Shown here piece by piece: positions 1 through 64,000 of a stretch of 64,000 bases of DNA. The stretch comes from Macrostomum lignano (Eukaryota). The position numbers and the translations under genes were made by a program. Where the stretch lies: contig NIVC01003676.1 of NCBI GenBank assembly GCA_002269645.1, forward strand, positions 19,410-83,409. Direction: 5' to 3'. Within the stretch, counting starts at the first letter, position 1; each line of letters begins with the position of its first letter. The notes below the pieces were generated by a model. The model did not search any database. It worked only from the letters and a program-made list of their open reading frames with translations, and had not been told where the DNA came from.

Positions 1-869
1 TCAGACTGACGTTGGAACCTGAGCGGGTGGATCGCGTAGCCTAACTCGTTCAGTCCGCGTCATATGAGTCCCTGTTACCGTACACACTCGTTTTACGGTT
101 CCAAAAGGAAATAGTGCAAAACGGAAACTCACTTTTACTCGGCCTTGCGTGTCATATGTGGGTGACTTTAGCGTCGTTGGCTATTATTGAATGTATACTT
201 TCGGATCTAAAGTTTTTTTATCAGACTGTTCTAAAGGTAATATCGGTGAAGCCAATAGGCGCCCTCTCTCTCGCTTATCACATCATTATTTTTATATAGA
301 TACATGTATACAATTACTACTTAGTCTTTTAGGGTCAGGGATTCGGCAATAGAGCAGCCGGGAAACTTATAATTGGCTAGGAAACGTGAAAACATGACAA
401 GGCGCGGGGCTTATGGGAAAAAATTGGGTTGCACACAGAAGGGCAGCCAATCAGAGTTGGGTACGGAGCGGGCCGGGGTAGAAAGAATGGGGAGGGGGCA
501 GGCAGCTAGGCTGGGGGGTTGATGCAAACCCCCCTGGGGGGGGGGGGTTGGTGCAAACACGTGGGCCGATGCGGTATGTGGGCGATATGTCGGGTACACT
601 TGTCGAAAACTAGAGATTGCTCATCAGTACTAATGTACCCGAGCACAATACTAATTAAGATGTTTATATGTTATGCTGTTTTTAACGATAATGTGCGTTA
701 ATATTTGAAGAAGCTGCTGCCAAGCCAGATTTTCCTGCCGACTATTTAATTGAAACGGCTACTGGACATTCCCCTCCAGCGTTCCCCCTCGGTGGTGTTT
801 CCTCTGCGTCTCTAAAAAGAAAAATGAAATGGGCAGCGGCACAAGAAAGAACTTTAGTGGCATTACTAG

Positions 870-1460
870 CAATCAGCGCCCCCCGTTGGGGAGCCAAAAA
901 ATGCAGTACAAGTTTTTTTTAATAAACTACATGTAAGCGTCTCTTTGCATTGTACATTGTAAGCCTTGACATGTCAGAAAATCCCACCACAAGCCTTAGC
1001 ATATCAACCCCCTTGACATATTAGCAATGCCCAATAAGCCTTGAAATCCTAAAAAATCTGTCAACCTTCTAACCCTAACCCTAGCCCTAACCCTAAACCT
1101 AACCCTAACCCTAACCCTAACCCTAACCCTAAAGCATTGACATTTCAGTAATTCTCTCCAACAGTCATTATAGCACTACAGCATTATAGCGATTCCCAGC
1201 AAGCCTCGACATCGTAGGGATTTCCAAATGAATCTCTTAACTTCGATATGAAGCTTCTTTTATTTTTTACATTACGCTTTTTCTATCAGCGATCCCTCCC
1301 GTGAGGAGCCAACAAATAATGAAAAAAAGTTTTCAATAGACTACATGTAGCTTCTGACTTTAGCCTTGACATCTCATTTATTCCCCCATGAGCCTTGACA
1401 TCTCAGCTATTCCCCCCGTAAGCCTTGACATGTCAGCAATGCCCCCCATAAACCTTTGAA
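870..1460. repeat. Two diverged direct copies (about 870-1135 and 1285-1460) of a small repeat family with AGCCTTGACAT sub-repeats; a third partial copy at 2335-2430
   Basis: The shared ATCAGCG..GGAGCCAA..AAGTTTT..ACTACATGTA lead-in and repeated (A)GCCTTGACAT words are visible in both copies. Confidence 0.6.
1069..1132 (+). repeat. Interstitial telomere-type repeat (TAACCC)n, about 10 units
   Basis: Direct read of ctaaccctaaccc; a degenerate version lies at 2381-2430. Confidence 0.9.
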
Positions 1461-2457
1461 ATGGGCGTGTCCTGCGGTTTAGGCTACTGGTTTACTGGTT
1501 TCTTTTTAATTTGATTAATCTGAGCTCGAGAGACTCCGGGCTTAGATTAAGCTGGAAGATTTCCTAGCTACCTTAAATTGAATGAATAGTTGTTACGATC
1601 TAGGTTACTTTGCTCTACTAATCTGCTATTACGTACTTTTATTTGGTAGGTCGCTGCCACCAGACTAATGCCCCTTATAATTAATGTTAAATCAAAATAA
1701 ATGAGACAAGAGTCAATTTCATATAAGATTATTTAGATCAAACAAACAAAAGAAATATTATTAAACCGAATATGCAAAGAAAGTACACAATTAATCCCTA
1801 TGTTAGCACCACGGTAGACTCCGATTTCTTATTTAGACCAATGGTAGACTCCTTTAGTCTTTTCCTATGTTACTTGATTTATATATAATCCTATTCTCGG
1901 TAGACTCCGTTGTGACTAAGTGGTAGACTCCTTCTTAGCCTCCCTATTTTACCCCTTAGAATTTTATCCTTAACTTACCCTTGATTTCCTTAAGCTTCTG
2001 TATTAAATTTTGAAAGGGAGACTCCCTTATTTTTTATTTTAGAATTGAGATCTTTGTCTCTATAAATATTGTCCTGATGGACGGTCCTGAACGGATATGC
2101 TTGGACTGATTGTCCCGAACGGATGCTTTTCCCGAGGCTAAACAGCCTTTTACTAATGGAGGAACCCGCTAAGACTCGAATTCCCACAACTTCAGATATT
2201 TCCCCGAGGGTGAACTACTAACAGTAGCGTAAAAGCAAAACTGCTTATTCTAGAATTCATGCTACTAAAATAATTCATCCCGACGAATGGCAAACGCCTT
2301 AGCAAAACTGCTTGAAACTAAACCCCCTACTACACCTTGATATCTGAAAAATCCCCTGTTAACCTTGAAACCCGCTAAAATCTAACCCTCAACCCAAACC
2401 TGACCTAAACCTAACTTTAACCCAACCTATAAATCCACATATGTTGATATTCACCCC

Positions 2458-3630
2458 GTGAACTCTATTGCTACTAACTCACCTATTGAATTCGACTGTC
2501 ATCCATCGGCTGATGAGTACACTGATCTGCTGAGCTCATTCCTGTATATTCGCTGTCGCCTAGTCCGGCTTGGCGGGGCTTTGATGAGGGAGGAGGTTCG
2601 GAATGCCGATGGAGTTGTCACTGAGCACCCAGAAAGCTTTGTCCTGTCTACGGCATTCTCAGATGTAATCGTGAGCATCAACCAGCGAATTGTATCAGGC
2701 GGAGACCAGCTCTACCCCTACCATGCCTACCTAAAAGCTCTCATGAGCTCATCCGATGCTCAGCAGTTAAAGTTCTACCCCGCCGGATTCCTGGAACCCG
2801 AAACTGCTGCTGAGGGGCATGCCGAGAGCCACAGGGAGTCCCGCTGGGTGGAGTATGCGGGACCACTGCTCAGCGACATCTTCCAGTGTCCTGTTCTGCT
2901 GCTGAACAATTTACACCTGCACATCAAGCTGATGCCCAGCGATGCTGCATTCGCCATTCGAACCCCAGATGATAACAACACAGCCTACCGAATGGAAATC
3001 TCCCACTGCATTCTGAACCTGCGCCGAGTCAAAGTGGCGCCTCACATTAGCCTAGCGCATGAGCAGGGACTGACCAATCAGAATTACTTTACCCCATCGA
3101 GCCAACTGAAATGCAAAACTTTATTCTACCCCAGGGAATTCAGTCAAAAAAACATTGAAGGATTCACCCATGGCAAACTGCCGAAGTTCGTTATGCTGGT
3201 CTTCGTGAACCACCTAGCCTTCAATGGCCATCACCATTCCAGCCCCTTCGAGTTCCAGAGCTTCAACCTCAGCCAGCTAGCACTAAAGAAAGGTGGTGAA
3301 GCCATGTGCCACGCTGCATTTGCACCTGAGAATAATTCATTCGTGAGAGAGTATTTGCACTACCTGAAAAGCTGTCAGTCAGCCAGCCCTACCAACACGG
3401 TTCCGTGGGTCCCCTACCAGTTGTTCTCCAACGGCAACACAGCTTTCGCATTCGATCTCACGCCTGAGGGAGCGGCCCTGTGGTACGGACAGAAGGAGGG
3501 CAATTTGCGGCTGGAGATTCGCTTCCGACAGGCCCTGGAGGAGCCTGTATCTCTGATTGTTATGTGCCTGTATGACTCACTGATTGAGGTCACGAAGCAC
3601 AGGGAGATTCTGCTAGATTTTTCATCCTAG
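2458..3630 (+). CDS. Polinton/adintovirus major capsid protein (PY, double jelly-roll), 5'-truncated; the frame is open from about 2404 and homology starts about 2431 (KSTYVDIHPV)
   Basis: Family motifs PIEF, YTDL..SFL, FSDVIVSINQRIVS, YPYHAYLKAL, GPL.SDIFQ..LLLN, GKLPKFVMLVFV..AFNG, SPFEF and GNLRLEIRF..AL..V.LIV....D.LIEV...R.ILLD. There is no ATG at the natural N-terminus. Confidence 0.88.
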   Translation: MNSIATNSPIEFDCHPSADEYTDLLSSFLYIRCRLVRLGGALMREEVRNADGVVTEHPESFVLSTAFSDVIVSINQRIVSGGDQLYPYHAYLKALMSSSDAQQLKFYPAGFLEPETAAEGHAESHRESRWVEYAGPLLSDIFQCPVLLLNNLHLHIKLMPSDAAFAIRTPDDNNTAYRMEISHCILNLRRVKVAPHISLAHEQGLTNQNYFTPSSQLKCKTLFYPREFSQKNIEGFTHGKLPKFVMLVFVNHLAFNGHHHSSPFEFQSFNLSQLALKKGGEAMCHAAFAPENNSFVREYLHYLKSCQSASPTNTVPWVPYQLFSNGNTAFAFDLTPEGAALWYGQKEGNLRLEIRFRQALEEPVSLIVMCLYDSLIEVTKHREILLDFSS

Positions 3631-3653
3631 GAGTACGCTGGCGCAACGCTAAT

Positions 3654-4172
3654 ATGGATGCTTTTCAATTGCTTAAACTGGCTAAAAGCTTTTTACCTCA
3701 AAATAACTATTTAATTATTGTCTTGAATTTAATAAATAAAACATCTTATGCTTTAAACTTTATTCAGCGAGCAACTCTCAAAAGAAATTTATCTCGATGT
3801 AAGTTTATTTTCTTTCTGCTTCAGTACGGCTCATCCTTCGGTCACTGGGTGGTTTGTTATGCTGATAAGGAGAATTCGGGCTGGGACTCAAGCACTTTAG
3901 AGATTATTCACGGAGCACTGAAATCCTTTTGGTATTCTCCATTCTACTTACGTGGCAACGTGAATCGAATTCAGAGCTGCGACTCTGCTAAATGCGGTTT
4001 GTTCTGTCTCTATTTTTCTATCAAAAGTTTCATTTCAAGCACGTTTGCATGGAGGGTTCTGCGGCACCTCCATGCAAATCAGCAGAGCCACTTGAATGAA
4101 AGAATGCTGCAAAGGTTTGAGAGTTGCTTAAGAAAAAGAAATTCAATTAGACTTTTAAAATTGAGGATTTAG
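3654..4172 (+). CDS. Adenain-like (Polinton PRO) cysteine maturation protease
   Basis: GHWV (His), WDS (Asp) and NRIQSCDSAKCGLFCLYF (oxyanion Gln and catalytic Cys); position between MCP and ATPase. Confidence 0.8.
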   Translation: MDAFQLLKLAKSFLPQNNYLIIVLNLINKTSYALNFIQRATLKRNLSRCKFIFFLLQYGSSFGHWVVCYADKENSGWDSSTLEIIHGALKSFWYSPFYLRGNVNRIQSCDSAKCGLFCLYFSIKSFISSTFAWRVLRHLHANQQSHLNERMLQRFESCLRKRNSIRLLKLRI

Positions 4173-4183
4173 CTCAACAGGCA

Positions 4184-4837
4184 ATGGAAACACGTGAGCG
4201 GATAAACTGTTATGATGTGCGCCTGCGACAGGGAAGCTGCATGATTGTCAGCGGACCTACAAATGCAGGAAAGACAACCTTCGTGAAACATCTGATACAA
4301 TACAAGGATGTCATGTTTGATGTGAAGCCTGGGAGAGTTCTGTGGTACTACGGGATTTCACAAGCAGCACACTCTGAGCTCAGCAGTCTCGGTGTGCACC
4401 TGCAGCAGGGATTTCCCAGCAGTATCGAGACCGCACTGAGACCCAATGACCTGGTTGTATTTGATGACCTGATTGAAGAAACTTCCAATTCTGCTGCTAT
4501 GCGAAATGTTTTCACTAGAATTGCCCATAATTTGCCCTGCTTTCTGGTTATTCTGACCCAAAATGTATTTTTTAAAGGGAAGGAGTTGCGAACAATGAGT
4601 CTGAATGCGATGTACTTTGTGATCATGAAGAACCCCAGAGACCAGCTGCAGATTGCAGCGCTGGGCAGGCAGTGCTTTGCTCAGAAGCCCGGCTTTCTGA
4701 GGTCAGTGCTCAAGCACGTGACCTCGCACGGCAGGGGAGCCTACCTGCTCCTGGATTTTCACCCTTCCACCCCTGATGAGCTGCGCGTCCGGGCTCGAAT
4801 CCTGCCCAATCAGCGACCCCACCTTGTTTACACTTAA
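4184..4837 (+). CDS. A32/FtsK-like DNA packaging ATPase of Polintons
   Basis: Walker A GPTNAGKT, Walker B LVVFDDL, and family motifs FT..AH, ILTQNVF, RTMSLNA.Y and KNPRD..QI..LGRQ. The ORF is complete. Confidence 0.93.
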   Translation: METRERINCYDVRLRQGSCMIVSGPTNAGKTTFVKHLIQYKDVMFDVKPGRVLWYYGISQAAHSELSSLGVHLQQGFPSSIETALRPNDLVVFDDLIEETSNSAAMRNVFTRIAHNLPCFLVILTQNVFFKGKELRTMSLNAMYFVIMKNPRDQLQIAALGRQCFAQKPGFLRSVLKHVTSHGRGAYLLLDFHPSTPDELRVRARILPNQRPHLVYT

Positions 4838-4860
4838 GAATAACAGCCGAGATTTTGCCA

Positions 4861-5250
4861 TTAGGCCGGTGGTTTTCCCACGGAAATTCCTGCGGCAGAG
4901 TCCACATTTCCCCTACTACTACAGCTAGTTTTACCGAACGGAAGACTTGAGTTCGGGCCAATCCACGCTCGCTTGTCCTCCCAGATACTGAGAGCGAGCT
5001 TACGTTGCTCAATGGTGAAAACGCGATGTTTCTCACTTCCAATTCGACGAACAGTGAGCGACAGCTTTGAAGCCCCCTTGAAAATCTTTACGTAGTCGTC
5101 GTGGGAGACTTCATTCTTCAGCACGCTTCGTTGGATGCCTTTTGCTTTTGCTTTGCATACCGCCGAGCTTTCAGCGAGGAAAGAATAGAGCTTGGGCCTT
5201 AGCGCCGAGAATTGATTTGAGAAATATTGAGAAAATTGTATTGACTCCAC
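4861..5250 (-). pseudogene. polB: C-terminal fragment of protein-primed family B DNA polymerase (homology about 4930-5215)
   Basis: ALRPKLYSF, KAKGI, DDY, RIGSEKHRVFT, KLALS..EDKR and LPFG match the pPolB palm/thumb end; the N-terminal majority is absent. Confidence 0.88.
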
Positions 5251-5266
5251 ATTTCCCCTACTACTA

Positions 5267-5480
5267 TAGCTGAGTGTTTAATTGCTATATCTGGGTGTTT
5301 AATTGCTATAGCTGGGTGTTTAATTGCTATAGCTGGGTGTTTAATTGCTATAGCAGGGTGTTTAATTCCTATAGCTGGGTGTTTAATTGCTATTGCTGGG
5401 TGTTTAATCGCTATGGCTGGGTGTTTAATTGCTATAGCTGGGTGTTTAATTGCTATAGCCGGATGTTTAATCGCTAGCCG
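5267..5480. repeat. 21-bp minisatellite (TAGCTGGGTGTTTAATTGCTA), about 10 copies
   Basis: Direct read. Confidence 0.95.
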
Positions 5481-6348: not shown

Positions 6349-8148
6349 TTGACGACAATTTCAACCCTTCAGGCCGACATCACCACGGAGCGTCAGCACC
6401 TGCTATCAAAATCAGAGGTGCAGCCGACAACGATGGAAATCTCTACGGTGTTCAAGCTGAAGTGCTTCATCTATGCGATGTTGCTGATTGCCCTAGGCTT
6501 TGTAACTACTATTGTTGAAACGCAGGACTTCTTAGAGGACGTCGAAAAAACTGATACAAGCGATCGAGCTGCCAGAACTCGAGGCATCATTAAATGGATT
6601 TGCTTTGGTATTAAATGCGCCTACCTGCTTCCCGCCATAGCTGGACTTCTGTACCTGCAGAGGTGGGCCATAGTGCAAGGCAAACTGCCTCTAGTTGCAT
6701 TGCAGGTGTGCGACCATGGGTCTCAATCAGACTTGTTGCAACAAAAAGCAGGAGTTTTGCTTCTGAAGAGCGTTAATCGATATGTCTACCTGCCAAGGAG
6801 GCTGAACAGCTCGCCATCCATGCTCATAATCTTAACGTCACTATTATTCGCGCTATTCTCTTGCTTGTCCATCATATTCGAAATGGCATGCGGAGTTATT
6901 GCGTCAATTGATCGTGCAGAATTTTTACGCAAAAACCTGCCCGACGTATTCGGATGCATGATTTTGCTAATTTTTATTATAACTCAGGCGAGGTTTTCTA
7001 TTCTATACGGCAGGGTTAGCTTCCAATGGAAGCTGCGCGTAGCCTGCTTAGTTTTTGCCCACGTCATTGCCACAAACATTTCCGCCTGGTTCTTCAGTGT
7101 TGGCTTCGAATTGAGTGAAATAATTTCCAATGAAACTGCCCACGGGGAGTTTGCTGGCTCCTATTGTACAATGTTTCCAATCATTCGAAGTCTCTATCCG
7201 TTCTTAACTGAGTACTACGTGATGAGCGCGCTCATCGTATTCGGATTTTCGGCCAATGTTGGAAAACTCGGCGTTGCGATTAAAGAAGCTGCAGCTGGAG
7301 GAATTCGAATTAGTACCGAGAGCATCCGGGATCTGCTGACAAAATCGGGCTCACCGCGCACAGGACACACTTGGCGTGCTGAGCGCTCTATGATGAGGCG
7401 GTACTCCAGTCGAATTTCCGTTGGCGTCGGCTTACTGCTCATCACGCTAGCTGCCGCTATTTTTCTCAGATATCAAAGCACAGACAAGATATACCCGCAG
7501 GTAGTGTTCTACTGCATCCTGATCCTGCTATACTCGAGCGGTATGGCCTGCAACTGTCTGCTACTAGGAGCAATTAGTACGAGTAGAACTAGCTGTCAAA
7601 GGTTTAGCAGTATTCACGGCACTGATCGGATTCTACTGTGGCTAGGCGCTCTAGCGATCGCAGTGAACAATATCTACACCATCGGGATGAGTGTTGCTCA
7701 AATTTTACGGGAGTATAATGTCTCGTATAAATTACCTGGATTGATCCTAAGCGCGGTCTGTTCTTGTATTAATATCGGTCAGAGCTTGCTGCAAGTGTTT
7801 ACTCTGGAGTGCACTTTGCTCTGCAGGTTCAGCTCCGGCAAGAATCAATACGGTCAGGCTATGTTGACAGTTCTCATGATAGTAAATGCTGCCCAGTGGC
7901 TCGACAACACAATCTGCTTTAGTTTCTTCTTTCCTAAAAATCAGCTAAACGATGCTCGAGTTCTTTCTCTTCTAACTGTACCCCTGCAGGTGTTTTTCCG
8001 TTTCCACTCGATTGCCTGCATGCACGACATTAAGAAGCATTGTAACGATTTGCACGCGGCCCATTCAGACAATCATTCGGCACAAGTGGCCGAACAAGCT
8101 GTTGAGCGTCTCAATGAAGAACCAATAGACTTTCCTGACGACAGCTAG
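6349..8148 (+). CDS. OTOP: Otopetrin-family proton channel, single exon, up to 599 aa (true start codon uncertain)
   Basis: Many hydrophobic helices; HVIATNISAW, LYPFLTEY and C-terminal PLQVFFRFHS correspond to the otopetrin H.IATN..W, LYPF..EY and FYRxHS motifs. Confidence 0.85.
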   Translation: MTTISTLQADITTERQHLLSKSEVQPTTMEISTVFKLKCFIYAMLLIALGFVTTIVETQDFLEDVEKTDTSDRAARTRGIIKWICFGIKCAYLLPAIAGLLYLQRWAIVQGKLPLVALQVCDHGSQSDLLQQKAGVLLLKSVNRYVYLPRRLNSSPSMLIILTSLLFALFSCLSIIFEMACGVIASIDRAEFLRKNLPDVFGCMILLIFIITQARFSILYGRVSFQWKLRVACLVFAHVIATNISAWFFSVGFELSEIISNETAHGEFAGSYCTMFPIIRSLYPFLTEYYVMSALIVFGFSANVGKLGVAIKEAAAGGIRISTESIRDLLTKSGSPRTGHTWRAERSMMRRYSSRISVGVGLLLITLAAAIFLRYQSTDKIYPQVVFYCILILLYSSGMACNCLLLGAISTSRTSCQRFSSIHGTDRILLWLGALAIAVNNIYTIGMSVAQILREYNVSYKLPGLILSAVCSCINIGQSLLQVFTLECTLLCRFSSGKNQYGQAMLTVLMIVNAAQWLDNTICFSFFFPKNQLNDARVLSLLTVPLQVFFRFHSIACMHDIKKHCNDLHAAHSDNHSAQVAEQAVERLNEEPIDFPDDS

Positions 8149-26785: not shown

Positions 26786-26883
26786 CTCTTTTAGCTAAAT
26801 TAATAACGTACATTAAATAAAGAATAAATAAAATGTGATGAAATTTCTGACTGCTACAGTAAACCCAATAGCCAATCAATACA

Positions 26884-27388
26884 ATGGAGAAGCCGCAAAT
26901 CATTGCTCACGTGCAGAAGTCGCTTAATTACACGCTGTACGACTGCAAGTGGTTGCCAGGTACAGCCAGATTCGCTGTGGTTGGCTCGCATCCCCGAGGC
27001 ACTGGCGCGCTGCAGATGTACGAAATTGCCCAAGGCGATGTGACCATTAAATTGGACACCGAAAAGGCCAAATCTTTTAAATGTTGCACCTTTGGCGCCT
27101 CGCTACCCGGTCGGAGTCACCTGGCAACTGGGGATTTCAATGGCCAGTTACACGTATGGGATGTTGACAAGCCGGAAGTGCCAGCTTATTCGGTCAAGGC
27201 GCATCAAGAAATTGTCAACACGATTGATGCAGTTGGTGGCACCGTAGGCGAGGGCGCGCCAGAAATCGCCACAGGATCTCGGGATGGCTCTGTCCGAGTG
27301 TGGGATCCCAGGCAGCCCAATGACCCCGTGGCCTGCATGGAGTCGGATGATAAGGCTACGGCTAGGTGAGAGAAATCCTGTTTGCTAG

Positions 27389-27429
<41 letters not shown>

Positions 27430-27450
27430 GTCTATCTATCCATCTATCTG

Positions 27451-27497
<47 letters not shown>

Positions 27498-27665
27498 GTC
27501 TATCTATCTATCTATCTATCCATCTATCTGTCTATCTATCTGTCTATCTATCTGTCTATCTATCTATCTATCTATCTATCTGTCTATCTATCTATCTATC
27601 TATCTGTCTGTCTGTCTATCTATCTACCTATCTATCTATCTGTCTATATATCTATCTATCTTTCC

Positions 27666-27701
<36 letters not shown>

Positions 27702-27717
27702 GTCTGTCTATCTATCC

Positions 27718-27761
<44 letters not shown>

Positions 27762-27762
27762 G

Positions 27763-27793
<31 letters not shown>

Positions 27794-28547
27794 GTCTATC
27801 TATCTATCTATCTATCTGTCTATCTATCCATCTATCTATCTATCCATCTATCTATCTATCTATCTATCTGTCTATCTGTCTATCTATCTATCTATCTTTC
27901 TATCTACTCATCTACTAATACTAATACTAATATCTAACCAGTCGCCGCCAACCCTAACTGCCCGCAGAGACTGCTGGGCTGTCGCATTCGGGGACGCGTT
28001 CAACTCAACAGAGCGCTGCCTGGTCTCCGGCTACGACAATGGCGACTTGAAACTATTCGACCTGCGAGCCATGGCCCTGCGCTGGGAGACCAACTTAAAG
28101 AATGGCATCTGTGGACTAGAGTTCGATAGACGCGACATACCGGCTAATAAACTGGTGGCGTCCACTTTGGAAGGCAAATTTCACGTGTTCGACATGAGAA
28201 CTCAGCATCCTAATAAGGGATTTGCCAGCCTCACCGAACGAGCTCATAAATCCACTGTTTGGTGCGCCAGGCACCTGCCGCAGAATCGCGACGTATTTAT
28301 GACCTGCGGCGGTTCCGGCGGCCTCTGTCTATGGCAATACAGCTATCCCACTGCTCGCGTTGCTAAGGACTCAGATGGGCTTGACTACGGCGTAGCCGGC
28401 ACAGTGGCACTGCTGCAGAATGTCACTCTGAGCACACAGCCTGTGGCTTCGTTCGATTGGAGTCCGGATAAGCTCGGCCTTGGTATTTGCGCTTCATTTG
28501 ACCAGTGCCTTCGAGTGCTTATTGTTACTAAGCTGAATAGGCTGTGA
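26884..28547 (+). CDS. WDR92: WD repeat protein 92 / dynein axonemal assembly factor 10; exons 26884-27365 and 27968-28547
   Basis: [44 protein letters not shown]|[35 protein letters not shown]; phase-2 GT-AG intron. Confidence 0.95.
27388..27905. repeat. (TATC)n microsatellite filling the WDR92 intron
   Basis: Direct read. Confidence 0.97.
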
Positions 28548-32495: not shown

Positions 32496-33433
32496 CACAA
32501 TCTTTTACAAGTAGTTTATTCTTCATTCTCTCTTTTCAACCTTAAATCATCGATTTAGGAGTTCAATAGAAAAATATTTTTAATTGTCCTTTTTACGTTC
32601 AAAATATTGCTTTCTATAAATACCTTAAGAACCTAAGGTAGCTTGTCTCATTCATTACTGTTTTTAATTAAACTACACTATTGTGTTTATTCAACCTCGT
32701 TATACGAGTGCAGTATCGACTACTCATGAGTAGTTTTTTCGGTGTTATATTTTTTGTCGCTTTGTTTTTATAATCTGGCGTGTGTGCAATAAAAACAGTA
32801 ATTTTGTTTTTTTTGTAAACGATCTCTACTAGTAAATTAACCATTTTACTGATTATATTATTGTTTTCATGTCATTTATAACCCTTACCGACCTATTTTT
32901 AAATCCAGCTTTTTGGTTGGTCCATTTTGCTTGTATTATTAAACTTTGTCGTAATGGCTGTTTGACATTTATTGAATTAGTCTACGATATATATTAACGT
33001 ATATATAAGATATTTACTAGTTATACATTATACTTTTTCGAAAAAATCGAAAAAGCAGAACAAAGAATTTTTCTTTGTGTTTTTTGTAAAAATTGAACAT
33101 TATTATTTTTAGTTTAGTATAAATTAATGACTGGTTTTAATAGATTTAGTAAATCAAAATGGGATCTCACAAGTAGTACAAAAAGTGATAAATGCGTGGG
33201 ATGTAGAGATGGGATTAAAATAGCGATGGGATAGGATAGAAGATCTAGGATAGAAGATATAGGATAAGCATATAAGATATAGGATAGAATAGAATATATA
33301 TGATGAGAATAGAAGCTATAGTATAGATTAGAAGAGATAGGATAGAGATAGAAGATATAGACTAGGGATACAATATGCACAGAGATAGGATAGATATATT
33401 ATAGTTAATATCGCACCAATCCCCGTTGCTTGC

Positions 33434-34045
33434 ATGTTGCCAGCCATGTCTTCAACATCCGGCGATTCGTCCGCTATACCCGCCCCGGTGAAATGGGCCC
33501 AGCGCAACGACAAGCTGTACTTGACAATCTGCTTGGAGGATGTGCAGAACAAGCAGTTGGATCTCACTAGCAACCGGCTGACCTTCACCGGGGTTGGCGG
33601 CACCGACCGCAAGCCGCACTCCACTGTCATTGACTTCTACGCCGAAGTGAACCCCGACGAGAGTCTGCAGATGGCCAACGATCGCGAGATAGTGATGAGC
33701 ATTCGCAAGAAGGAGCCCGGCCCTTATTGGCCCCGCCTGACTGCCGACAAGGTCAAACGGCACTGGATCAAAACTGATTTCAATCGCTGGGTTGATGAAG
33801 ACGAAGGACCTGGCGGAGATGAGGATGGCGGCGGTTTCGGCGCTAACGACAACCAACTCGAGTCGATGTTGGCCCAGATGGGCGGCGGTTTCGGCGGTGC
33901 CGGTGGCGGCGCCGGCGGAATGGACTTTTTGAAAGGCGACGAAGAGGACTTCGATTTAGGCGACGGCGAAGGTCTGGAGGCTGACGGACCGGATGGGAAT
34001 GGGGAGAAAGACGGCGAGGATGAGGAGATTCCGCCGCTGGAGTGA
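33434..34045 (+). CDS. PTGES3: HSP90 co-chaperone p23 (prostaglandin E synthase 3), intronless; ATG at 33434 or 33446
   Basis: VKWAQRNDKLYLTICLED, YWPRLTADKVKRHWIKTDFNRWVDEDE, Gly/Met-rich segment and acidic tail ending IPPLE. Confidence 0.93.
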   Translation: MLPAMSSTSGDSSAIPAPVKWAQRNDKLYLTICLEDVQNKQLDLTSNRLTFTGVGGTDRKPHSTVIDFYAEVNPDESLQMANDREIVMSIRKKEPGPYWPRLTADKVKRHWIKTDFNRWVDEDEGPGGDEDGGGFGANDNQLESMLAQMGGGFGGAGGGAGGMDFLKGDEEDFDLGDGEGLEADGPDGNGEKDGEDEEIPPLE

Positions 34046-55349: not shown

Positions 55350-55883
55350 AATTGCTGTTCTAAATAAGTTTTAAATGTATCACCTAGCTATTCGCTATTA
55401 CACTTACTGTCCCTCTAACTTAAGTTTCTGATAAATTATGAAAAGATACTGTAAATTACATATATGAATTGAAGATTACAAAAAATATAATGAAAACCAA
55501 ATGAAAGTCAGATTTGATAAAGTATAGAGATCCAGGCGATCTATGCAGTGAATATAAACATAGGGCTCGTATCTTAACATAGCAACTTGGGGGCACAATG
55601 AATTAAGCTTTTATCTTGGCTAGAAACTTCAGCGTGACAAAAAAGGTGAAGCTACACCTCTCTTCAATGCATCGCATGAGAGTGTTTAGATATAGAAGCA
55701 GCGAACTTCCGCTGATTTACATCTGACGCATAAATAAGCTTCGCGCACCTGGAACCTGCCAGGTGCCCCAAAGTTACAGTTAGCAAGATGCAAGCAGTTG
55801 TCTCTGTTTCTGCTTGGTAGAGCATTAGTTTGTAAAACTTACCGATTTTTTAAGCAACCCTGACTTAATAAGACAATCGGACA

Positions 55884-58780
55884 ATGCGGCAACTGATTGT
55901 GTTGCTTTCAGTTTGCTGCGCCGTTTCGAGCAGAACTTCGCCTGTGCAGTCTTGCCGCTTCCCATCAAAATGCGACTGCACAATCGAAAGGAAAGATCCC
56001 TATCTCATGTGCGTGAAGATGGAGAACTGTCTCAATCAGGCTGACATGAACGCCATCGCTGCTTCAATCAATCCGAACGTTTGTCCCGTAACCCATTTGA
56101 AAATTTCCTGCTCAAAAGAGTCCAAAGGCAAGGAAATTGAGATCCAATCGGATCTATTCAAGCACTCGAATTGGCAACACCTGAAAGAGCTCACTTTCGG
56201 ATCTCCAGTTGATTACGTCTTCAAAGAAACAAAGGTTTTAAAACACCTGAAGAAACTGCGGTACCTGGAGATGCAGTTTATGAACATCGTCACTGACCTC
56301 GGTACACTGTCGGAGACAATGTGCTGCTCCGTCAACTTATCGGAATTGCACTTTAGAGGTGTCACGATAAAATCACGGGCATCAACTCTTGGTCGGAATT
56401 CATTCATTGGCTTTCGGTCTCTTAAAAAGGTGACCATTAATAGCTCTCCGTCGATGCTGAAGACAATCAAATACCAGTTCAATACAACTGCTCCAAGCTT
56501 TCTGTTCGAAATTTACGGCAATCTTCCTCGTGGAAACTTCTCCAGCATCAGCTTGACAAACACTGCTAACCGATCTGGCCTTCATTTGGGCTTGCACGGT
56601 GATGATCGTTCATTCCAGCTAGATGCCCCAGCTCAAATCGAAGGGTTCACATTGTCCACATTTTCCATGACTAACTACCATCTGGTGTCTGTCGGTGAGT
56701 CACCGTTTGCCGACTTCCAGCTGCAGACGATCGAGATTTCTTCTTCGCGATTGAATGAGAAGCTGTTAAAGAGGCTGCTGCGAGCTGCAAGCCGAGTCAA
56801 GGACCCCGCGCTCTTCAATAAACTCTCCGTCCAGTTCTCCCTGAGCAAGCCGGGATTCCCGTATGACGACTTCAATCGTCTGTGCGAGTCCTTGCCTTGG
56901 ATAAGGGAAATATCCATCAGCCACTCACCGATTAGCTTGTCAGACCCAAACAAGCTGCTCAACTGCTCCCAGCTGAGAACACTGTCATTAACCAACACAA
57001 AGTTAAATCTGCTGCCACCAAATGTTTTCAGTGGTCTACCCAAACTGAAAACTTTAGTCCTTACGAACTGCCATCTGTACGAGTTTCCCAAAGAAGCTCT
57101 TCGACAAACGCCCAATCTAGAGACGCTCATCATGGAGAAGAACAACAACATGGACGTCAAGGCTACCTCACTTCGAGGCATTCTCCCCAACTTGCGCTCT
57201 CTGGATTTATCCTACGCAAGCATATCTGCTGCACTTGTTGATGCTTTCATGGATCAGAAGAATCTGACCTACTTAAAGCTAAGCAACCTGCATAACAACG
57301 CATGGTGCACTGTCGGCAAGACTTGGTTCCGTGGATGCGACAAGCTGACGAACCTGGACCTCTCGCAAAACGACATGCTGTCGAAGGCGCTGTGCCATGC
57401 AAACGGGTTCCTCGCACCGCTCAGACATCTTCAACACCTCAACTTGAGAAAGTGTTTAGTCGGCAGACAAACCGATGGAATCATAAAGTCAATGCTGACG
57501 AATCTCACCTCACTGAGAACTCTTGACTTGGAAGGAAACGACATCGATAAAGTGAAACACATTCTGAGTGTCCGGATGCCCAATCTAACCACCTTGAACC
57601 TCGCGAAGAACTCCTTCTCCGAATTTTCGTCAGACCTTTTCATTACGAGGACACCGAATCTCAAAGTGCTTAAACTTGCCGCCAACCCAATCGTGAGTCT
57701 GAGGCCTGCAGCTTTCAATCGAATGCCGGATCTCAGGGTGCTCTTCGGAGGTAACCAGTTCGTCTGCTCATGCGACTTGGTGAAGTTTACTGACTGGATG
57801 AGACAGCAGTACCCGATCTACCAGATTGAGAACAAAGGTTCGTGGCTATCCAATGCAATGTGCAACAAGATGCCTAACGGGTCCCATCCAATCAGCAATG
57901 TCATGCTGTTGGACTTCCGACTGTCCTGGTGGGACTGCTACAGCAGACGGCTGATTGCTGTGTTGTCCTCGGCGATCGGCGGACTGATGGTTGTGTTCGC
58001 GGTGAGCAGCGCGGTTTCGAGATACCGCTGGAAGCTCCGGTATGCGCTGCTAGCGTTCTGCATTCGGCACGGACTCGTGAGAGGGCGGAAGCTGCAGAGC
58101 GAATGGACCTACGAGTGAGTTTAAATATTGTGCTAATGTCGGATTTATTGGATTTAGGCTAATGTTGAGCTGGTAGATAGTCTGTTCCAAAAACTTTGGT
58201 ACGTTATGGAACGGTATGGAACCAATGCTTAATTGGCGAGTAATTTGATTGATACTTTGATGACCGCCGCAGCGCCTGCTTCATCTACGACGAGACGGAC
58301 AGCTCGGTGTCCGAGTGGGTCGGCGACCTCGTCCTCAAGCTTGAGACGGACCTGCGGCTCCGCCTGTACGAAGCCGAGAGAGACGCGCCCGTCGGGTCCA
58401 ACATGCTGGACGAGGCGGCCTCGGCCATCGACAAGAGCCGACACGCCGTGCTGGTGCTGAGCCGGGGCTTCCTGGAGAACAGGCTCAACTTGTACAGCGC
58501 ACAGTGGAGCAGCGAATCGCTGTTTATGCGCCGCCGCTCTCTGGCCGTTCTCGTCATGAGGGAGAAGCTGAGCGAGTCCGAGCTGCGATTTCCGGAATGC
58601 AAGGTGCTGCATCGGCTGTACCGGATGTGCAAGCGGGACCGGATTGTAGACTGCAGCGGCTGTGGAGTCGGGAGCAACTCCGCGAACCGGCTGGGACTGC
58701 TGCTGTACGACGGCGCGGCCGTGTCGGGGCGGGCGCAGGAGCGTCGGGCTCAGGAGTCCGAGACCGAGTGGCTTCTCTAG
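55884..58780 (+). CDS. TLR: Toll-like receptor, single-cysteine-cluster type, about 912 aa; exons 55884-58114 and 58273-58780
   Basis: Signal peptide, LRRNT (CRFPSKCDC), LRRs, LRRCT (GNQFVCSCDL), TM (LIAVLSSAIGGLMVVFAV), RWKLRY; a phase-2 intron joins to the TIR start YD|ACFIYD. Confidence 0.9.
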
Positions 58781-60139
58781 CTCGGGTGATTGAAATCGGT
58801 TTTGCGTCAGGATGGTTGAGATAGACGTCCTGCAAGGTCTTACGGCTCAATTCTTCGACGGAAGTCGCATGACTATATGGCTACTACTCATGAGAATCTT
58901 GTTTTAAGGGCAAAACGCGTTGTCTTCTTTTTTCCTCGGACGAATTCTTTTCTAGTAATAACTTTGAATCTAAACTGAGTCTAAACTAATTCTAAAATTG
59001 GTTTTGACCCATTCGAAAATTGCAAAACTGGTGGCAGAAATATTTTTTACGAAAAATCGGCTAAGTACCTAACATTGTTCTGGGAAATTAAAAATTTTTC
59101 AAATATATATTGTTTCAATTTTTGCATTCAGGTGCTGATTAAATTTGATTTAATAGTTTTTTTTTTAGTTTCGTTAACTAATTAGACAATCCTATCAATA
59201 CGTTTTTTAATTTCATAACCTTTTTTCTACGAGATATTTTTTTAAAATCAATAAATAATTATCTGCTTTAATTTTTACTCATGCATGTAATTGGAATGTG
59301 TGTGGATATATATCCTACCATTTTAACTGGCCAAATTTTTGTAACAGCTTTAGTTATAAACCTGTGCAAAGAAGCTAATTACAAAAATAGATAAAATTAA
59401 ATTTTACATTAGATAGCTACTGAAATGATTTGACCTAAAGATAAATTTCTTTTAAGAGACAACTTTTTATAATTATTAAAATGTACATACGAGTCAAAGC
59501 ATTCAAAAACGATGTCAGCAGTAAAAAACTTTGAAATTTCAGCGATAATAGATGAAATACGCTTGTAGTGTAACGCAAAATAGCTAGTTTTAAAAAAATT
59601 GTACAATTTTCGGTATTTGTACAATTTACTTTACTCGTAGCAAAGTAATAGCCATTTTTTATTAGTTTAATAACCAAATGAAGTACGTACGAGCGTATTA
59701 GCTAGCTACAAAGTCGCAACAATTTAAAGTAGTCAGTTTAAAAATTAAACCTTTTTGTACTACTGTAATGACATTGTACTAGCTCGTAACAATTGGTTCA
59801 ATTGCTGAGATGTCAACTTTTACGGGGGAATAGACTGGGGGCAGCAATTGTCTTGAGCTCTGCCATTCTGGATTAAGTCAAGTGCTCCTAAGCTCAAACT
59901 GGCTGCAATAGCTATATTAAATTGTCACAGTGTACGACTCTGTGCATTGGGTGTAGGCTAACGTGTTGCCGCAGTCGGACTCCCAAACACTACGCAGTTG
60001 CTCGTCCAGCCACTGAGGCTTATGTCAAAAGTGATAGACCCATTGGGCAGATGTGCAGCCGACAGCTCAGCCGCAGCTATTTGCGCGGCGCATCTGAAAG
60101 CTGCTGCGTACGGCTGTTCAGTCCAAAGACTGGGGGGTC

Positions 60140-60300
60140 GCCACACACCCTCAATTACCCCAGCTAATGCTGGCACCAAATTTACAGCTGGGTGAACTGA
60201 AGCAATGCAGAGTTAAGTGCCGTGCTCAAGGACACAAATTGTTCCGAGTCTGACCTTATTCAGTATTGAGTCTGACGCTCTAACCATTAGGCTATAACCT
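60140..60300 (-). mobile_element. tRNA-derived CORE-SINE (may extend to about 59930)
   Basis: Minus strand: TAGCCTAATGGTTAGAGCGTC head, then GTGTCCTTGAGCACGGCACTTAACTCTGCATTGCTTCAGTTCACCCAGCTGTAAAT, resembling the MIR/CORE domain. Confidence 0.68.
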
Positions 60301-60390
60301 TTAGTAGAGATGGTTTGGGATCTTCCAGAAAGTAAAGGTTAGCTCGCAATTAATTCAAAATTTTTTTTTTCAAAACGATCCCATCCAGCT

Positions 60391-63390
60391 CTAGTCGTCA
60401 GACAGAAGCGACTTCGTCCCTGCGGCCTCGGCACCACGCTCCTGCGACCGTCCCGACACGTCCGCGCCGTCGTACAGCAGCAGTCCCAGCCGGTTCGCGG
60501 AGTTGCTGCCGACTCCGCAGCCGCTGCAGTCTACAATCCGGTCCCGCTTGCACATCCGGTACAGCCGATGCAGCACCTTGCATTCCGGAAATCGCAGCTC
60601 GGACTCGCTCAGCTTCTCCCTCATGACGAGAACGGCCAGAGAGCGGCGGCGCATGAACAGCGACTCGCTGCTCCACTGTGCGCTGTACAAGTTGAGCCTG
60701 TTCTCCAGGAAGCCCCGGCTCAGCACCAGCACGGCTTGTCGGCTCTTGTCGATGGCCGAGGCCGCCTCGTCCAGCATGTTGGACCCGACGGGCGCGTCTC
60801 TCTCGGCTTCGTACAGGCGGAGCCGCAGGTCCGTCTCGAGCTTGAGGACAAGGTCGCCGACCCATTCGGACACCGAGCTGTCCGTCTCGTCGTAGATGAA
60901 GCAGGCGCTGCGGCGGTCATCAAAGTATCAATCAAATTACTGGCCAATTAAGCATTGGTTCCATACCGTCCAGGAGCCTAAAAGCTTTACTTCGCACCTA
61001 CCATGTTTTATCATCCAAGTTCGTAGAGCTTACCAATTCAGTTGTACCAAAGTTTTTGGAACAGACCATCTACCAGCTCAACATTAGCCTAAATCCAATA
61101 AAGTCCATTCTAAAGGGGAATGTTTTTCCATTGAAAGCTACTTGCACAATATCGAAACTCACTCGTAGGTCCATTCGCTCTGCAGCTTCCGCCCTCTCAC
61201 GAGTCCGTGCCGAATGCAGAACGCTAGCAGCGCATACCGGAGCTTCCAGCGGTATCTCGAAACCGCGCTGCTCACCGCGAACACAACCATCAGTCCGCCG
61301 ATCGCCGAGGACAACACAGCAATCAGCCGTCTGCTGTAGCAGTCCCACCAGGACAGTCGGAAGTCCAACAGCATGACATTGCTGATTGGATGGGACCCGT
61401 TAGGCATCTTGTTGCACATTGCATTGGATAGCCACGAACCTTTGTTCTCAATCTGGTAGATCGGGTACTGCTGTCTCATCCAGTCAGTAAACTTCACCAA
61501 GTCGCATGAGCAGACGAACTGGTTACCTCCGAAGAGCACCCTGAGATCCGGCATTCGATTGAAAGCTGCAGGCCTCAGACTCACGATTGGGTTGGCGGCA
61601 AGTTTAAGCACTTTGAGATTCGGTGTCCTCGTAATGAAAAGGTCTGACGAAAATTCGGAGAAGGAGTTCTTCGCGAGGTTCAAGGTGGTTAGATTGGGCA
61701 TCCGGACACTCAGAATGTGTTTCACTTTATCGATGTCGTTTCCTTCCAAGTCAAGAGTTCTCAGTGAGGTGAGATTCGTCAGCATTGACTTTATGATTCC
61801 ATCGGTTTGTCTGCCGACTAAACACTTTCTCAAGTTGAGGTGTTGAAGATGTCTGAGCGGTGCGAGGAACCCGTTTGCATGGCACAGCGCCTTCGACAGC
61901 ATGTCGTTTTGCGAGAGGTCCAGGTTCGTCAGCTTGTCGCATCCACGGAACCAAGTCTTGCGACAGTGCACCATGCGTTGTTATGCAGGTTGCTTAGCTT
62001 TAAGTAGGTCAGATTCTTCTGATCCATGAAAGCATCAACAAGTGCAGCAGATATGCTTGCGTAGGATAAATCCAGAGAGCGCAAGTTGGGGAGAATGCCT
62101 CGAAGTGAGGTAGCCTTGACGTCCATGTTGTTGTTCTTCTCCATGATGAGCGTCTCTAGATTGGGCGTTTGTCGAAGAGCTTCTTTGGGAAACTCGTACA
62201 GATGGCAGTTGTAAGGACTAAAGTTTTCAGTTTGGGTAGACCACTGAAAACATTTGGTGGCAGCAGATTTAACTTTGTGTTGGTTAATGACAGTGTTCTC
62301 AGCTGGGAGCAGTTGAGCAGCTTGTTTGGGTCTGACAAGCTAATTGGTGAGTGGCTGATGGATATTTCCCTTATCCAAGGCAAGGACTCGCACAGACGAT
62401 TGAAGTCGTCATACGGGAATCCCGGCTTGCTCAGGGAGAACTGGACGGAGAGTTTATTGAAGAGCGCGGGGTCCTTGACTCGGCTTGCAGCTCGCAGCAG
62501 CCTCTTCAACAGCTTCTCATTCAATCGCGAAGAAGAAATCTCGATCGTCTGCAGCTGGAAGTCGGCAAACGGTGACTCACCGACAGACACCAGATGGTAG
62601 TTAGTCATGGAAAATGAGGACAATGTGAACCCTTCGATTTGAGCTGGGGCATCTAGCTGGAATGAACGATCATCACCGTGCAAGCCCAAATGAAGGCCAG
62701 ATCGGTTAGCAGTGTTTGTCAAGCTGATGCTGGAGAAGTTTCCATGAGGGAGATTGCCGTAAATTTCGAACTGAAAGCTTGGAGCAGTTGTATTAAATTG
62801 GTATTTGATTGTCTTCAGCATCGACGGAGAGCTATTAATGGTCACCTTTTAAGAGACCGAAAGCCAATGAATGAATTCCGACCAAGAGTTGATGCCCGTG
62901 ATTTTATCGTGACACCTCTAAAGTACAATTCGGATAAGTTGACGGAGCAGCACATTGTCTCCGACAGTCTACCAAGGTCAGTGACGATGTTCATAAACTG
63001 CATCTCCAGGTACCGCAGTTTCTTCAGGTGTTTTAAAACCTTTGTTTCTTTGAAGACGTAATTAACCGGAGATCCGAAAGTGAGCTCTTTCAGGTGTTGC
63101 CAATTCGAGTGCTTGAATAGATCCGCTTGGATTTCAATTTCCCTGCCTTTGGATTCTTTTGAGCAGGAAATTTTCAAATGGGTTACGGGACAAACGTTCG
63201 GATTGATTGAAGCAGCGATGGCGTTCATGTCAGCCTGATTGAGACAGTTCTCCATCTTCACGCACATGAGATAGGGATCTTTCCTTTCGATTGTGCAGTC
63301 GCATTTTGTTGGGAAGCGGCAAGACTGCACAGGCGAAGTTCTGCTCGAAGCGGCGCAGCAAACTGAAAGCAACACAATCAGTTGCCACAT
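60391..63390 (-). pseudogene. TLR: Inverted paralogue of the TLR with three 1-bp deletions (about 62848, 62210, 61961); exons 61163-63390 and 60391-60907. May be intact if the indels are sequencing errors
   Basis: Nearly identical to 55884-58780 with the same intron position; two of the three deletions shorten homopolymers (A5 to A4, GG to G). Confidence 0.85.
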
Positions 63391-64000
63391 TGTCCGATTG
63401 GCCTAGTAAAATTAGTGGCTTTTTAATTCACGCTTATTTCAAGGCTGTCGGAATAGAAAGTTGGCTTTTTTATAGCCATTACTTTCGCGTTATTAGCAGA
63501 CACACGGTGGTGCTGTGCAGACATGTATATGCATACATTTACGTCTAGTTCAAGGTTAATCGAGGGAGAATGTGTATTTGCGTCTAATTTCTAGCATAAT
63601 TTTAGGCCCACAGTAGCAGAATAAATTGCGCACTTCGCTACTTAACAAGCTATACGCAGCTACCTTTGCATATGGCTGGCACAGATGACTAAAAATAAGC
63701 CTTCTAGGCCAATTTAAAAGTCAGGTTTCAGCTAAGTTGACGATTTTTTATAAATCGTTTCGATTGTTTAATGATTTTCTACAAACTTCTTGCAGCACTT
63801 CCTGCCTTATTCGAAATTGGCATACGCGGTCACGTGCTGTACCAAATTGCCACAACAACATGGCAACTTTGATAGAAATCGATATGAAACTTTAAAATGG
63901 TAGAAAACATGAACGCTTAGTTATAAACAATAATCGGTTGCATTTGAACAGTATAGTAGTTGCGCTGCCTACGCATATGTTTAGGTGAAATTAACGCGAA

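Follow-up and report, generated by a model that had tools for sequence, protein, structure and literature searches.

A broken Polinton remnant in Macrostomum lignano and its many-copy family, with a TBP-like gene and a putative promoter box

The window analysed here is a 64,000-nucleotide stretch of Macrostomum lignano contig NIVC01003676.1, and its positions 2431..5265 are very probably the broken, rearranged remains of a Polinton/Maverick element that had integrated here, one among many copies in this genome, which alone is likely to yield no working capsid, protease or polymerase. The window copy is itself ordinary, decay being the norm for Mavericks, and it serves as a caution that a stop-free frame is not the same as an intact gene. 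Of more interest is the family to which it belongs, present in many copies in a laboratory flatworm, recently mobile, and carrying a TATA-binding protein (TBP)-like gene of its own together with a matching sequence box.

Open frames in a damaged element

Three adjacent frames free of stops lie on the + strand, at 2431-3630, 3654-4172 and 4184-4837, as an earlier note on this DNA had described for the major capsid protein (MCP), protease (PRO) and ATPase; the gaps are 23 and 11 nt, where the note gave 24 and 11. Its assignment to a Polinton/adintovirus-type element also holds; the capsid is a double jelly-roll, and fuller copies carry an integrase (INT) and a penton-position gene. The capsid fold, named in advance as a test, was recovered in a structure model (pLDDT 94.5) whose Foldseek matches are double jelly-roll capsids (E 1e-15 to 1e-12), those of iridovirus, PBCV-1, mavirus and Sputnik; searches with the capsid sequence against PDB and Pfam gave no match. 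What had been called an open capsid frame (2431..3630, + strand) is stop-free throughout, but it lacks a start codon at the 5' terminus, the first 22 codons having been lost through an insertion, and it contains a gap and a frameshifted stretch. Positions 1..2430 (no strand assigned) are the downstream part of this non-Polinton insertion, which splits the capsid gene and comprises a host-type duplicated segment to ~1068, then telomere-like repeats and a dispersed repeat at 1069-2430.

Eight indel events mark the window, the set being identical against each of six other copies. In the capsid gene 18 nt are missing at 2625 and a -1/+1 pair at 3084/3146 shifts the stretch 3084-3146; in the protease gene 21 nt are missing at 3878, -1/-2/+3 changes shift the stretch 4011-4048, and a -1 change at 4133 adds a further frameshift. 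No frame is closed by these events, as each gap either has a length divisible by three or is offset by another. The adenain-type protease gene (3654..4172, + strand), open but damaged, lacks seven codons that include the second catalytic position, and the catalytic His, Gln and Cys are present. The PF00770 match comes from copy C2692 (E 4e-5, above the cut-off); the alignment to adenain is weak (E 0.75). The 11-nt spacing between protease and ATPase results from the frameshift at 4133, and is 33 nt in copy C130. Of the two genes described earlier as intact, only the packaging-type P-loop ATPase gene (4184..4837, + strand) is full length and without indels, but it is substituted at six positions that do not vary among five other copies. 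Both Walker motifs (A and B) are present and the position fits a packaging ATPase; profile matches are to P-loops only and weak, and the structure model is of low confidence (pLDDT 52), with no meaningful structure match. With the ATPase frame whole and two TAAGAA boxes remaining in the window, some expression is possible.

About 3.3 kb of element DNA lies within a 9.9-kb span at the locus, where the penton-position gene, the TBP-like gene and most of INT and of the polymerase (PolB) are absent; a 426-bp integrase piece remains upstream of the window. Intact, potentially active Mavericks are recognised by complete core genes between two ends, a completeness that the window copy lacks. Between the ATPase and the polymerase ~2.8 kb (2.7-2.9 kb in fuller copies) and four genes have been deleted, and only because of this deletion does the polymerase adjoin the ATPase. 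The convergent pPolB of the earlier note shrinks to the last 90 of 1,200 codons of a protein-primed PolB (4933..5203, - strand; residues 1055-1144, 7.5% of the gene) within a PolB-like frame at 4861-5277 (-), and these codons lie outside the inner element end, past a terminal repeat that stops at 4920.

That inner end (4862..4920, no strand assigned) consists of the terminal inverted repeat's final 59 nt, ends in ACTACT, is identical to the left end at 56 of 59 positions and has been fused by deletion to sequence just 3' of the ATPase; the hexamer after it resembles the target duplication and also a native hexamer near the PolB stop. An outer end of 23 nt (5243..5265, likewise unstranded), also ending in ACTACT, is bridged by a contig of run X14. 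It is followed by the 6-bp target duplication ATAGCT (5266..5271, + strand), whose counterpart, the identical hexamer, stands in front of the left end at G000:C3676:14804, some 4.6 kb ahead of the window. This duplication is less firm than in other copies because both hexamers lie within a 21-bp tandem array (5264..5476, + strand), the insertion target, whose other half stands before the left end. With two right ends at the locus, a nested insertion and a tandem pair both fit.

The same insertion site, with matching flanks, is found broken differently in contigs C1186 and C1426, the former keeping capsid codons 1-23 on the insertion's other side, and none of four right-flank matches is an empty site. 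A recent integration had been proposed, but the site exists in three versions, each broken in its own way, that diverge by 2.4-3.4%, and the integration is therefore not recent. Window-versus-copy dN/dS is 0.11-0.30, and not 1, because most of the differences are older than the insertion. What the sequences show is an element with AGTAGT/ACTACT ends that sits in the 21-bp array with a 6-bp duplication, whose capsid gene was split by a non-viral insertion after about codon 22, and from which deletions took most of the left arm as well as 2.8 kb that separated ATPase from polymerase. A single integrase-made insertion, possibly a tandem pair, would be older than the point at which the three versions parted, and would have decayed afterwards. 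The idea that the element carries a host ion-channel-like gene to new sites as cargo was rejected because the segment lies within the element at this site only, and is Polinton-free at C1332 and C890.

Other readings of the locus

The reading of the element as newly integrated and still competent, its compact MCP-PRO-ATPase-PolB layout being unusual, would suit the three stop-free frames, the protease catalytic residues and both ATPase Walker motifs, but it is extremely improbable, as the capsid has no start, eight indel events are present, 7.5% of PolB is left and an element end stands between ATPase and PolB, where 2.7-2.9 kb normally lies. Its supposedly unusual order, without penton or PZ, becomes a standard one once the fuller copies are read, since MCP-PRO adjacency, a penton one gene upstream and an atp-pm-pz row make up the published Maverick layout in the available parts of PMC8097293 and PMC4028283; for layout and completeness this reading is refuted. 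Domestication of the capsid or ATPase frame by the host, hence the open frames, is hardly to be believed either. In its favour, each gap keeps the frame or is compensated, 2.4 kb run without a stop, and all versions of the locus have the site, yet these genes are lost in the C1186 version and frameshifted in that of C1426, and the missing capsid start and the ATPase changes at invariant positions also count against it.

The lesions private to this contig (the 21-nt gap, the 3084/3146 pair and 24 substitutions) could be assembly errors, the 21-nt gap being unseen in the contigs of four out of four sequencing runs, although such contigs drop rare variants. That gap, the repeat-rich contig and a right flank whose identity to C1186 shifts from ~90-98% to 100% near window position 7000 would fit a locus made up for the most part by faulty assembly, from a Polinton copy, host repeats and read errors. 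Such a chimera is very unlikely: the junction of element end, hexamer and PolB recurs in C1186 and C1426, that from PolB to the outer end recurs in C1426 and in the run X14 contig, and the window shares with the C1426 version both 16 derived substitutions and the protease frameshifts at 4011-4133, so that neither of these is an error of one contig.

The family in the genome

At least 106 capsid matches were found in the genome (104 of 526 candidates were scored), at least 28 of which are other copies whose frame, free of stops, runs for 427 or more aa over the whole query. The fuller copies anticipated in the earlier note do exist, with INT, a penton-position gene, terminal repeats (132-135 bp) and, where both ends were located (three copies: C84, C106 and C2692), AGTAGT/ACTACT ends and 6-bp target duplications. 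Their genes run PC4-INT-penton-basic-MCP-PRO-ATPase-105aa-230aa-160aa-TBP, facing pPolB and one more gene, and the order is fixed through to PolB in 12 of the 14 other sites examined. The integrase is a 355-aa ORF (rve PF00665, E 2e-12, plus chromo) and PolB a 1,200-aa ORF with a weak PF03175 match (E 7e-14) and Endonuclease_7. In 12 fuller copies a conserved 269-aa ORF occupies the usual penton place one gene upstream of the capsid, and PM/PZ-position genes lie downstream; the former had no Pfam, PHROG or PDB match and the latter no family or structure match, so that penton, PM and PZ are putative names given by position only. A search of 12 loci (114 kb) against Rfam returned no match.

Capsid dN/dS is 0.05-0.18, and the fuller copies stay under purifying selection. 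Virion-forming polintoviruses are recognised by particles and extrachromosomal linear genomes; from the family there is purifying selection on the capsid-module genes. Over 2.4 kb no difference separates the copies of two pairs that occupy different sites (C84/C3089 and C130/C2692); it is the family, rather than the window copy, that moved recently. Fuller copies would probably work as other Mavericks are thought to, with integrase taking them in and out, protein-primed replication from the element ends, and the ATPase packaging DNA into a double jelly-roll shell, which the protease then matures. In a quick-method tree of 53 rows the capsids of the family form their own long-stemmed clade. Scans of viral contigs with the capsid and TBP alignments, and of metagenomes with P0004, gave no loci; in the deep capsid alignment conservation was nowhere high enough for it to serve as a scan query. 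We found no paper on Polintons in M. lignano, in keeping with the suggestion that the lineage may be undescribed in this host; RepBase or bioRxiv supplements may hold the family.

A TBP-like gene and a recurrent box

The family carries a stand-alone gene for a 188-aa, two-repeat TBP-like protein, which is absent from the window. Its TBP core is matched by PF00352 in two stretches (E 1e-22) and by 35 PDB TBP sequences (best E 8e-17), and protein searches returned nothing beyond own-host proteins, three from Logan (66-72%) and a single distant one from JGI. The dN/dS of the gene is 0.13-0.35. A TAAGAA box precedes 8 of 11 same-strand genes, with bias in position and strand. Two boxes are left in the window: a putative promoter element ahead of the ATPase gene and inside the protease 3' end (4128..4134, + strand), and one at the ATPase stop (4834..4840, + strand), which in fuller copies precedes the 105-aa gene, deleted here.

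The chances are roughly even that the TBP and the box constitute a built-in switch for the particle genes, in which the element's TBP may bind TAAGAA and turn these genes on. It could also be, with a probability a little short of one half, that a host TBP/TRF reads the box, or that a helper virus polymerase does so, as with the TAAG late motif of baculoviruses, or that the box is the 3'-end signal of the preceding gene, the element's TBP acting otherwise, for example as a decoy. Most boxes do fall within the 3' end of the gene ahead of them, they stand anywhere from 40 to 148 nt from the start codon, and the TBP gene itself is preceded by one. Against this, the INT box, in an unalignable spacer at -40 to -61 in four of six copies, tracks the INT start and not the PC4 end, and the TBP-like frame is kept open across subfamilies and in a second, 36%-identical family. 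We tentatively propose, at somewhat less than even confidence, that the remnant derives from an active flatworm Polinton lineage that would run its particle genes by a private TBP and TAAGAA box, and of which recently moved copies may still form virions.

The literature searched gave no account of how animal Mavericks time their capsid genes and, on Mavericks and TATA-binding protein, nothing beyond the adintovirus paper (PMC8502044), in the available part of which TBP is named solely in the legend of a figure about other MELD viruses and related elements; no passage on promoters occurs in PMC11296320. The family would open two questions, particles and capsid-gene timing, to promoter mapping, binding assays and particle searches.

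Comparison with known systems

The vertebrate Mavericks of Barreat and Katzourakis (PMC8097293, available part) share with this family the int-minor capsid-pw-major capsid-protease module, the atp-pm-pz run (by position here), (AGT)2//(ACT)2 ends, 6-bp target duplications, a length of 12-16 kb, a majority of degraded copies beside some intact ones, and purifying selection; 96% of the vertebrate loci are decayed, and Maverick particles had not been observed at the time of that paper. Unlike them, the flatworm family has its ATPase run 3' of the protease on the same strand, with only PolB and one gene opposed, extra TBP-like, PC4-like and 160-aa genes, and a long-stemmed capsid clade of its own. 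With the adintoviruses of Starrett et al. (PMC8502044, available part) it shares PolB, rve integrase, hexon, adenain and ATPase in an animal genome, its weak PF03175 match fits their 'more divergent' PolB class, and the Beta-type is the likely nearer one. Alpha and Beta are told apart by the clade of PolB and capsid and by PLA2X or GasderminX/Cupiennin. The Polintons of Schmidtea mediterranea, likened here by description and not by sequence, also place capsid-module genes in a flatworm, a different host, in elements of 12.8-14.9 kb; the supplement rows of PMC4028283 that were available hold no Macrostomum entry.

The closest likeness to the TBP-like gene is the TBP mimic of beta- and gamma-herpesviruses (KSHV ORF24, as described in the sources available). 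The family's protein differs in being stand-alone, 188 aa and two-repeat, in a 12-16-kb element, with no partner complex known. Both systems have a virus-encoded TBP-like protein and a non-standard box ahead of structural genes, a pairing that is inferred for the family and that, if true, would make it a small-scale counterpart to the late transcription of herpesviruses, set in an integrating virus of a laboratory model animal.

Open frames and their decay

Three stop-free frames lie in succession on the forward strand of the window (G000:C3676:19410-83409), encoding a capsid protein (2431-3630, without a start codon at its 5' end), a protease (3654-4172) and an ATPase (4184-4837), followed by a PolB-like frame on the reverse strand (4861-5277). 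Structure prediction of the capsid frame with 141 relatives yielded a model (pLDDT 94.5, pTM 0.92) that matched iridovirus, PBCV-1, mavirus and Sputnik capsids in the PDB (E 1e-15 to 1e-12) and MELD, adomavirus and virophage capsids in BFVD. Because the model matches capsids in both databases, the double jelly-roll fold on which an earlier note had staked its reading stands, and its identification of a Polinton/adintovirus-type element holds. The window protease matches Peptidase_C5 weakly (E 0.033), while that of another family copy matches above cut-off; the ATPase frame carries Walker A and Walker B motifs and is, from its sequence, a candidate A32-class enzyme.

The same note had described the genes as intact, which they are not. 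Comparison with six other copies gives 2.6-3.4% substitutions in the window and an identical set of eight indel events: an 18-nt gap (2625) and a -1/+1 pair (3084/3146) in the capsid gene and, in the protease gene, a 21-nt gap (3878), a shifted stretch (4011-4048) and a -1 (4133), the last of which lengthens the protease tail and so produces the 11-nt gap before the ATPase. The 21-nt gap removes the stretch aligned to adenain's second catalytic position. Six positions of the ATPase that do not vary among five other copies are substituted here, and the PolB piece is truncated to residues 1055-1144 of 1,200. Over 1,930 columns, the window and another version of the site have in common the lesions at 4011-4133 and 16 derived substitutions; 24 substitutions occur in the window alone and 17 in that other version alone. 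Lesions private to the window contig may be errors, since contigs from all four sequencing runs compared carry only the longer form at 3878. The copy in the window belongs to a known kind and has decayed.

History of the insertion site

The left end of the element, AGTAGT, lies upstream of the window at C3676:14804, preceded by a 21-bp array ending ATAGCT. There, 112 nt of terminal repeat directly abut 426 nt of integrase; the next 6.5 kb or so are non-viral DNA, made up of a duplicated host-type segment and a dispersed repeat. The capsid-protease-ATPase block, 3' of this DNA, runs at 4862 straight into the final 59 nt of the terminal repeat (ending at 4920), after which come the PolB piece, the second end (5243-5265), ATAGCT and the remainder of the array. 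Of the 9.9 kb spanned, about 3.3 kb is element DNA.

The right flank is shared with contigs C1186 and C1426, and the left flank is matched in C1186 as well. The C1186 version still carries integrase, the penton-position and basic genes and, as far as the insertion, capsid codons 1-23, but has lost the block present in the window; that on C1426 consists of two units, broken differently. None of the four right-flank matches is an empty site, all four bearing element ends. The simplest reading is one element insertion, a later insertion into the capsid gene, and then separate deletions. Several versions of one site are consistent with the host genome duplication reported in the literature, as far as the available text goes.

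The dispersed repeat (window 1069-2430) is flanked by telomere-like (CCCTAA)n runs and has at least 43 matches (40 of 141 candidates scored). Within the capsid-splitting insertion, two long host-type ORFs occupy G000:C3676:16559-18606 on the reverse strand (L011 6150-8197), one of them matching the ion-transport family PF00520 (E 9e-5); copies of this segment lie on C1186, C1426, C1332 and C890. Just past the insertion site is an intronless 571-aa otopetrin-family gene (6433-8148, forward strand; PF03189, E 5e-11), which the C1186 and C1426 versions carry too. By eye, the window further contains a WD40-type gene broken up by a (TATC)n run (26872-28547), a p23-like co-chaperone ORF (33389-34045) and, across 55872-63402, a receptor-like ORF with leucine-rich repeats and a TIR-like tail, together with a second copy that is inverted and broken.

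The family in the genome

A search of the 764-Mb genome gave at least 106 capsid matches (104 of 526 candidates scored), among which at least 28 other copies keep the capsid frame free of stops for 427 aa or more, spanning the query; there were 151 matches for a TBP-like gene and 134 for PolB, the latter taking in more distant families. The order (PC4)-INT-269aa-basic-MCP-PRO-ATPase-105aa-230aa-160aa-TBP, with PolB facing, is found in 12 of 14 other sites. One of the two outside it is C1184, a distant family examined over 10 kb only; on C38, PolB and the left genes were not found in the stretch examined. In the three copies with both ends found, the termini read AGTAGT/ACTACT, the repeats measure 132-135 bp and the duplications 6 bp. 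Some copies at separate sites show no difference over 2.4 kb, which indicates that the family moved recently; recent integration, as earlier claimed, was not upheld for the window copy.

Pairwise dN/dS values, with saturated pairs left out, were as follows: capsid 0.05-0.18, ATPase 0.05-0.29, integrase 0.03-0.12, the 269-aa gene 0.10-0.32 and TBP 0.13-0.35. When 53 capsids were placed in a quick tree, the genome's copies and four relatives fell into one clade (SH-aLRT 100, stem 0.76).

Copies of 12.1 kb on C84 (L012-L013) and C106 (L019-L020) have near-perfect ends, each with its own target duplication, and lack most of PolB; they are likely a non-autonomous subfamily retaining the capsid module. 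C84 and C130 are alike at 98% in capsid, at 79% in integrase and at about 61% in PolB, a pattern suggestive of mosaic subfamilies with modules swapped between copies. The PolB at L024 5244-8846 contains an Endonuclease VII/HNH-type insert (PF02945, E 7e-7); an HNH insert, which may or may not be the same one, is called unique to nematode and oomycete pPolB2 in the available part of the nematode Polinton preprint 10.1101/2023.08.22.554363. The distant family at L057 (G000:C1184:46674-53999; identity 43% in capsid, 36% in TBP) has the same gene run and a TBP-like gene, with a PC4-like gene on the opposite strand.

Comparison with known systems

The earlier note's claim of an unusual gene order does not survive comparison with the portions available of PMC8097293 and PMC4028283; the family's order is ordinary. 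Vertebrate Mavericks run int-minor capsid-pw-major capsid-protease, and ppolb with atp-pm-pz (PMC8097293), and the penton gene is most often one gene off the capsid gene (PMC4028283, whose listing includes Schmidtea Polintons). The 269-, 138-, 105- and 230-aa genes are candidate penton, PW, PM and PZ, named by position only. Vertebrate elements end in (AGT)2//(ACT)2 with 6-bp duplications, and 96% of their loci are degraded (PMC8097293); on this partial view the M. lignano family is alike in its AGT/ACT-type ends and 6-bp duplications.

The family also encodes a PC4-like protein and a 188-aa TBP-like protein (PF00352, E 1e-22; PDB TBPs matched down to E 8e-17). In the gene module of six copies, counts of the motif [ACT]TAAGAA are 55 for the sense strand and 6 for the opposite strand, and 48 of the 55 fall 30-160 nt ahead of a start codon, a zone holding 16% of bases. 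The enrichment (binomial p 1e-4 to 9e-8 per copy) is overstated by these p-values, because motif and distance range were picked after inspection and the copies are related. In 6/6 copies the box stands ahead of six genes (269-aa, basic, capsid, ATPase, 160-aa and TBP); it does so for the 105-aa gene in 5/6, for integrase in 4/6, and for the PC4, protease and 230-aa genes in 0/6; two boxes survive in the window (4128-4134 and 4834-4840). In the C1184 family it lies at -102 of capsid and -51 of the 160-aa-like gene and was not found within 130 nt of the TBP start, and 9/9 TAAGA sites are on the sense strand. The element's own TBP might read this putative promoter motif; about evenly balanced against that are reading by a host TBP/TRF or by a helper virus, or service as a 3'-end signal.

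In the available text of the adintovirus paper (PMC8502044), TBP is named solely in legends that deal with other MELD viruses and related elements, and in the literature searched on animal Mavericks a report of TBP was not found. Judged on its genes and motifs, the family appears new in having a TBP together with a putative box, and the closest parallel to such a pairing, from partial sources, would be the herpesvirus TBP mimic.
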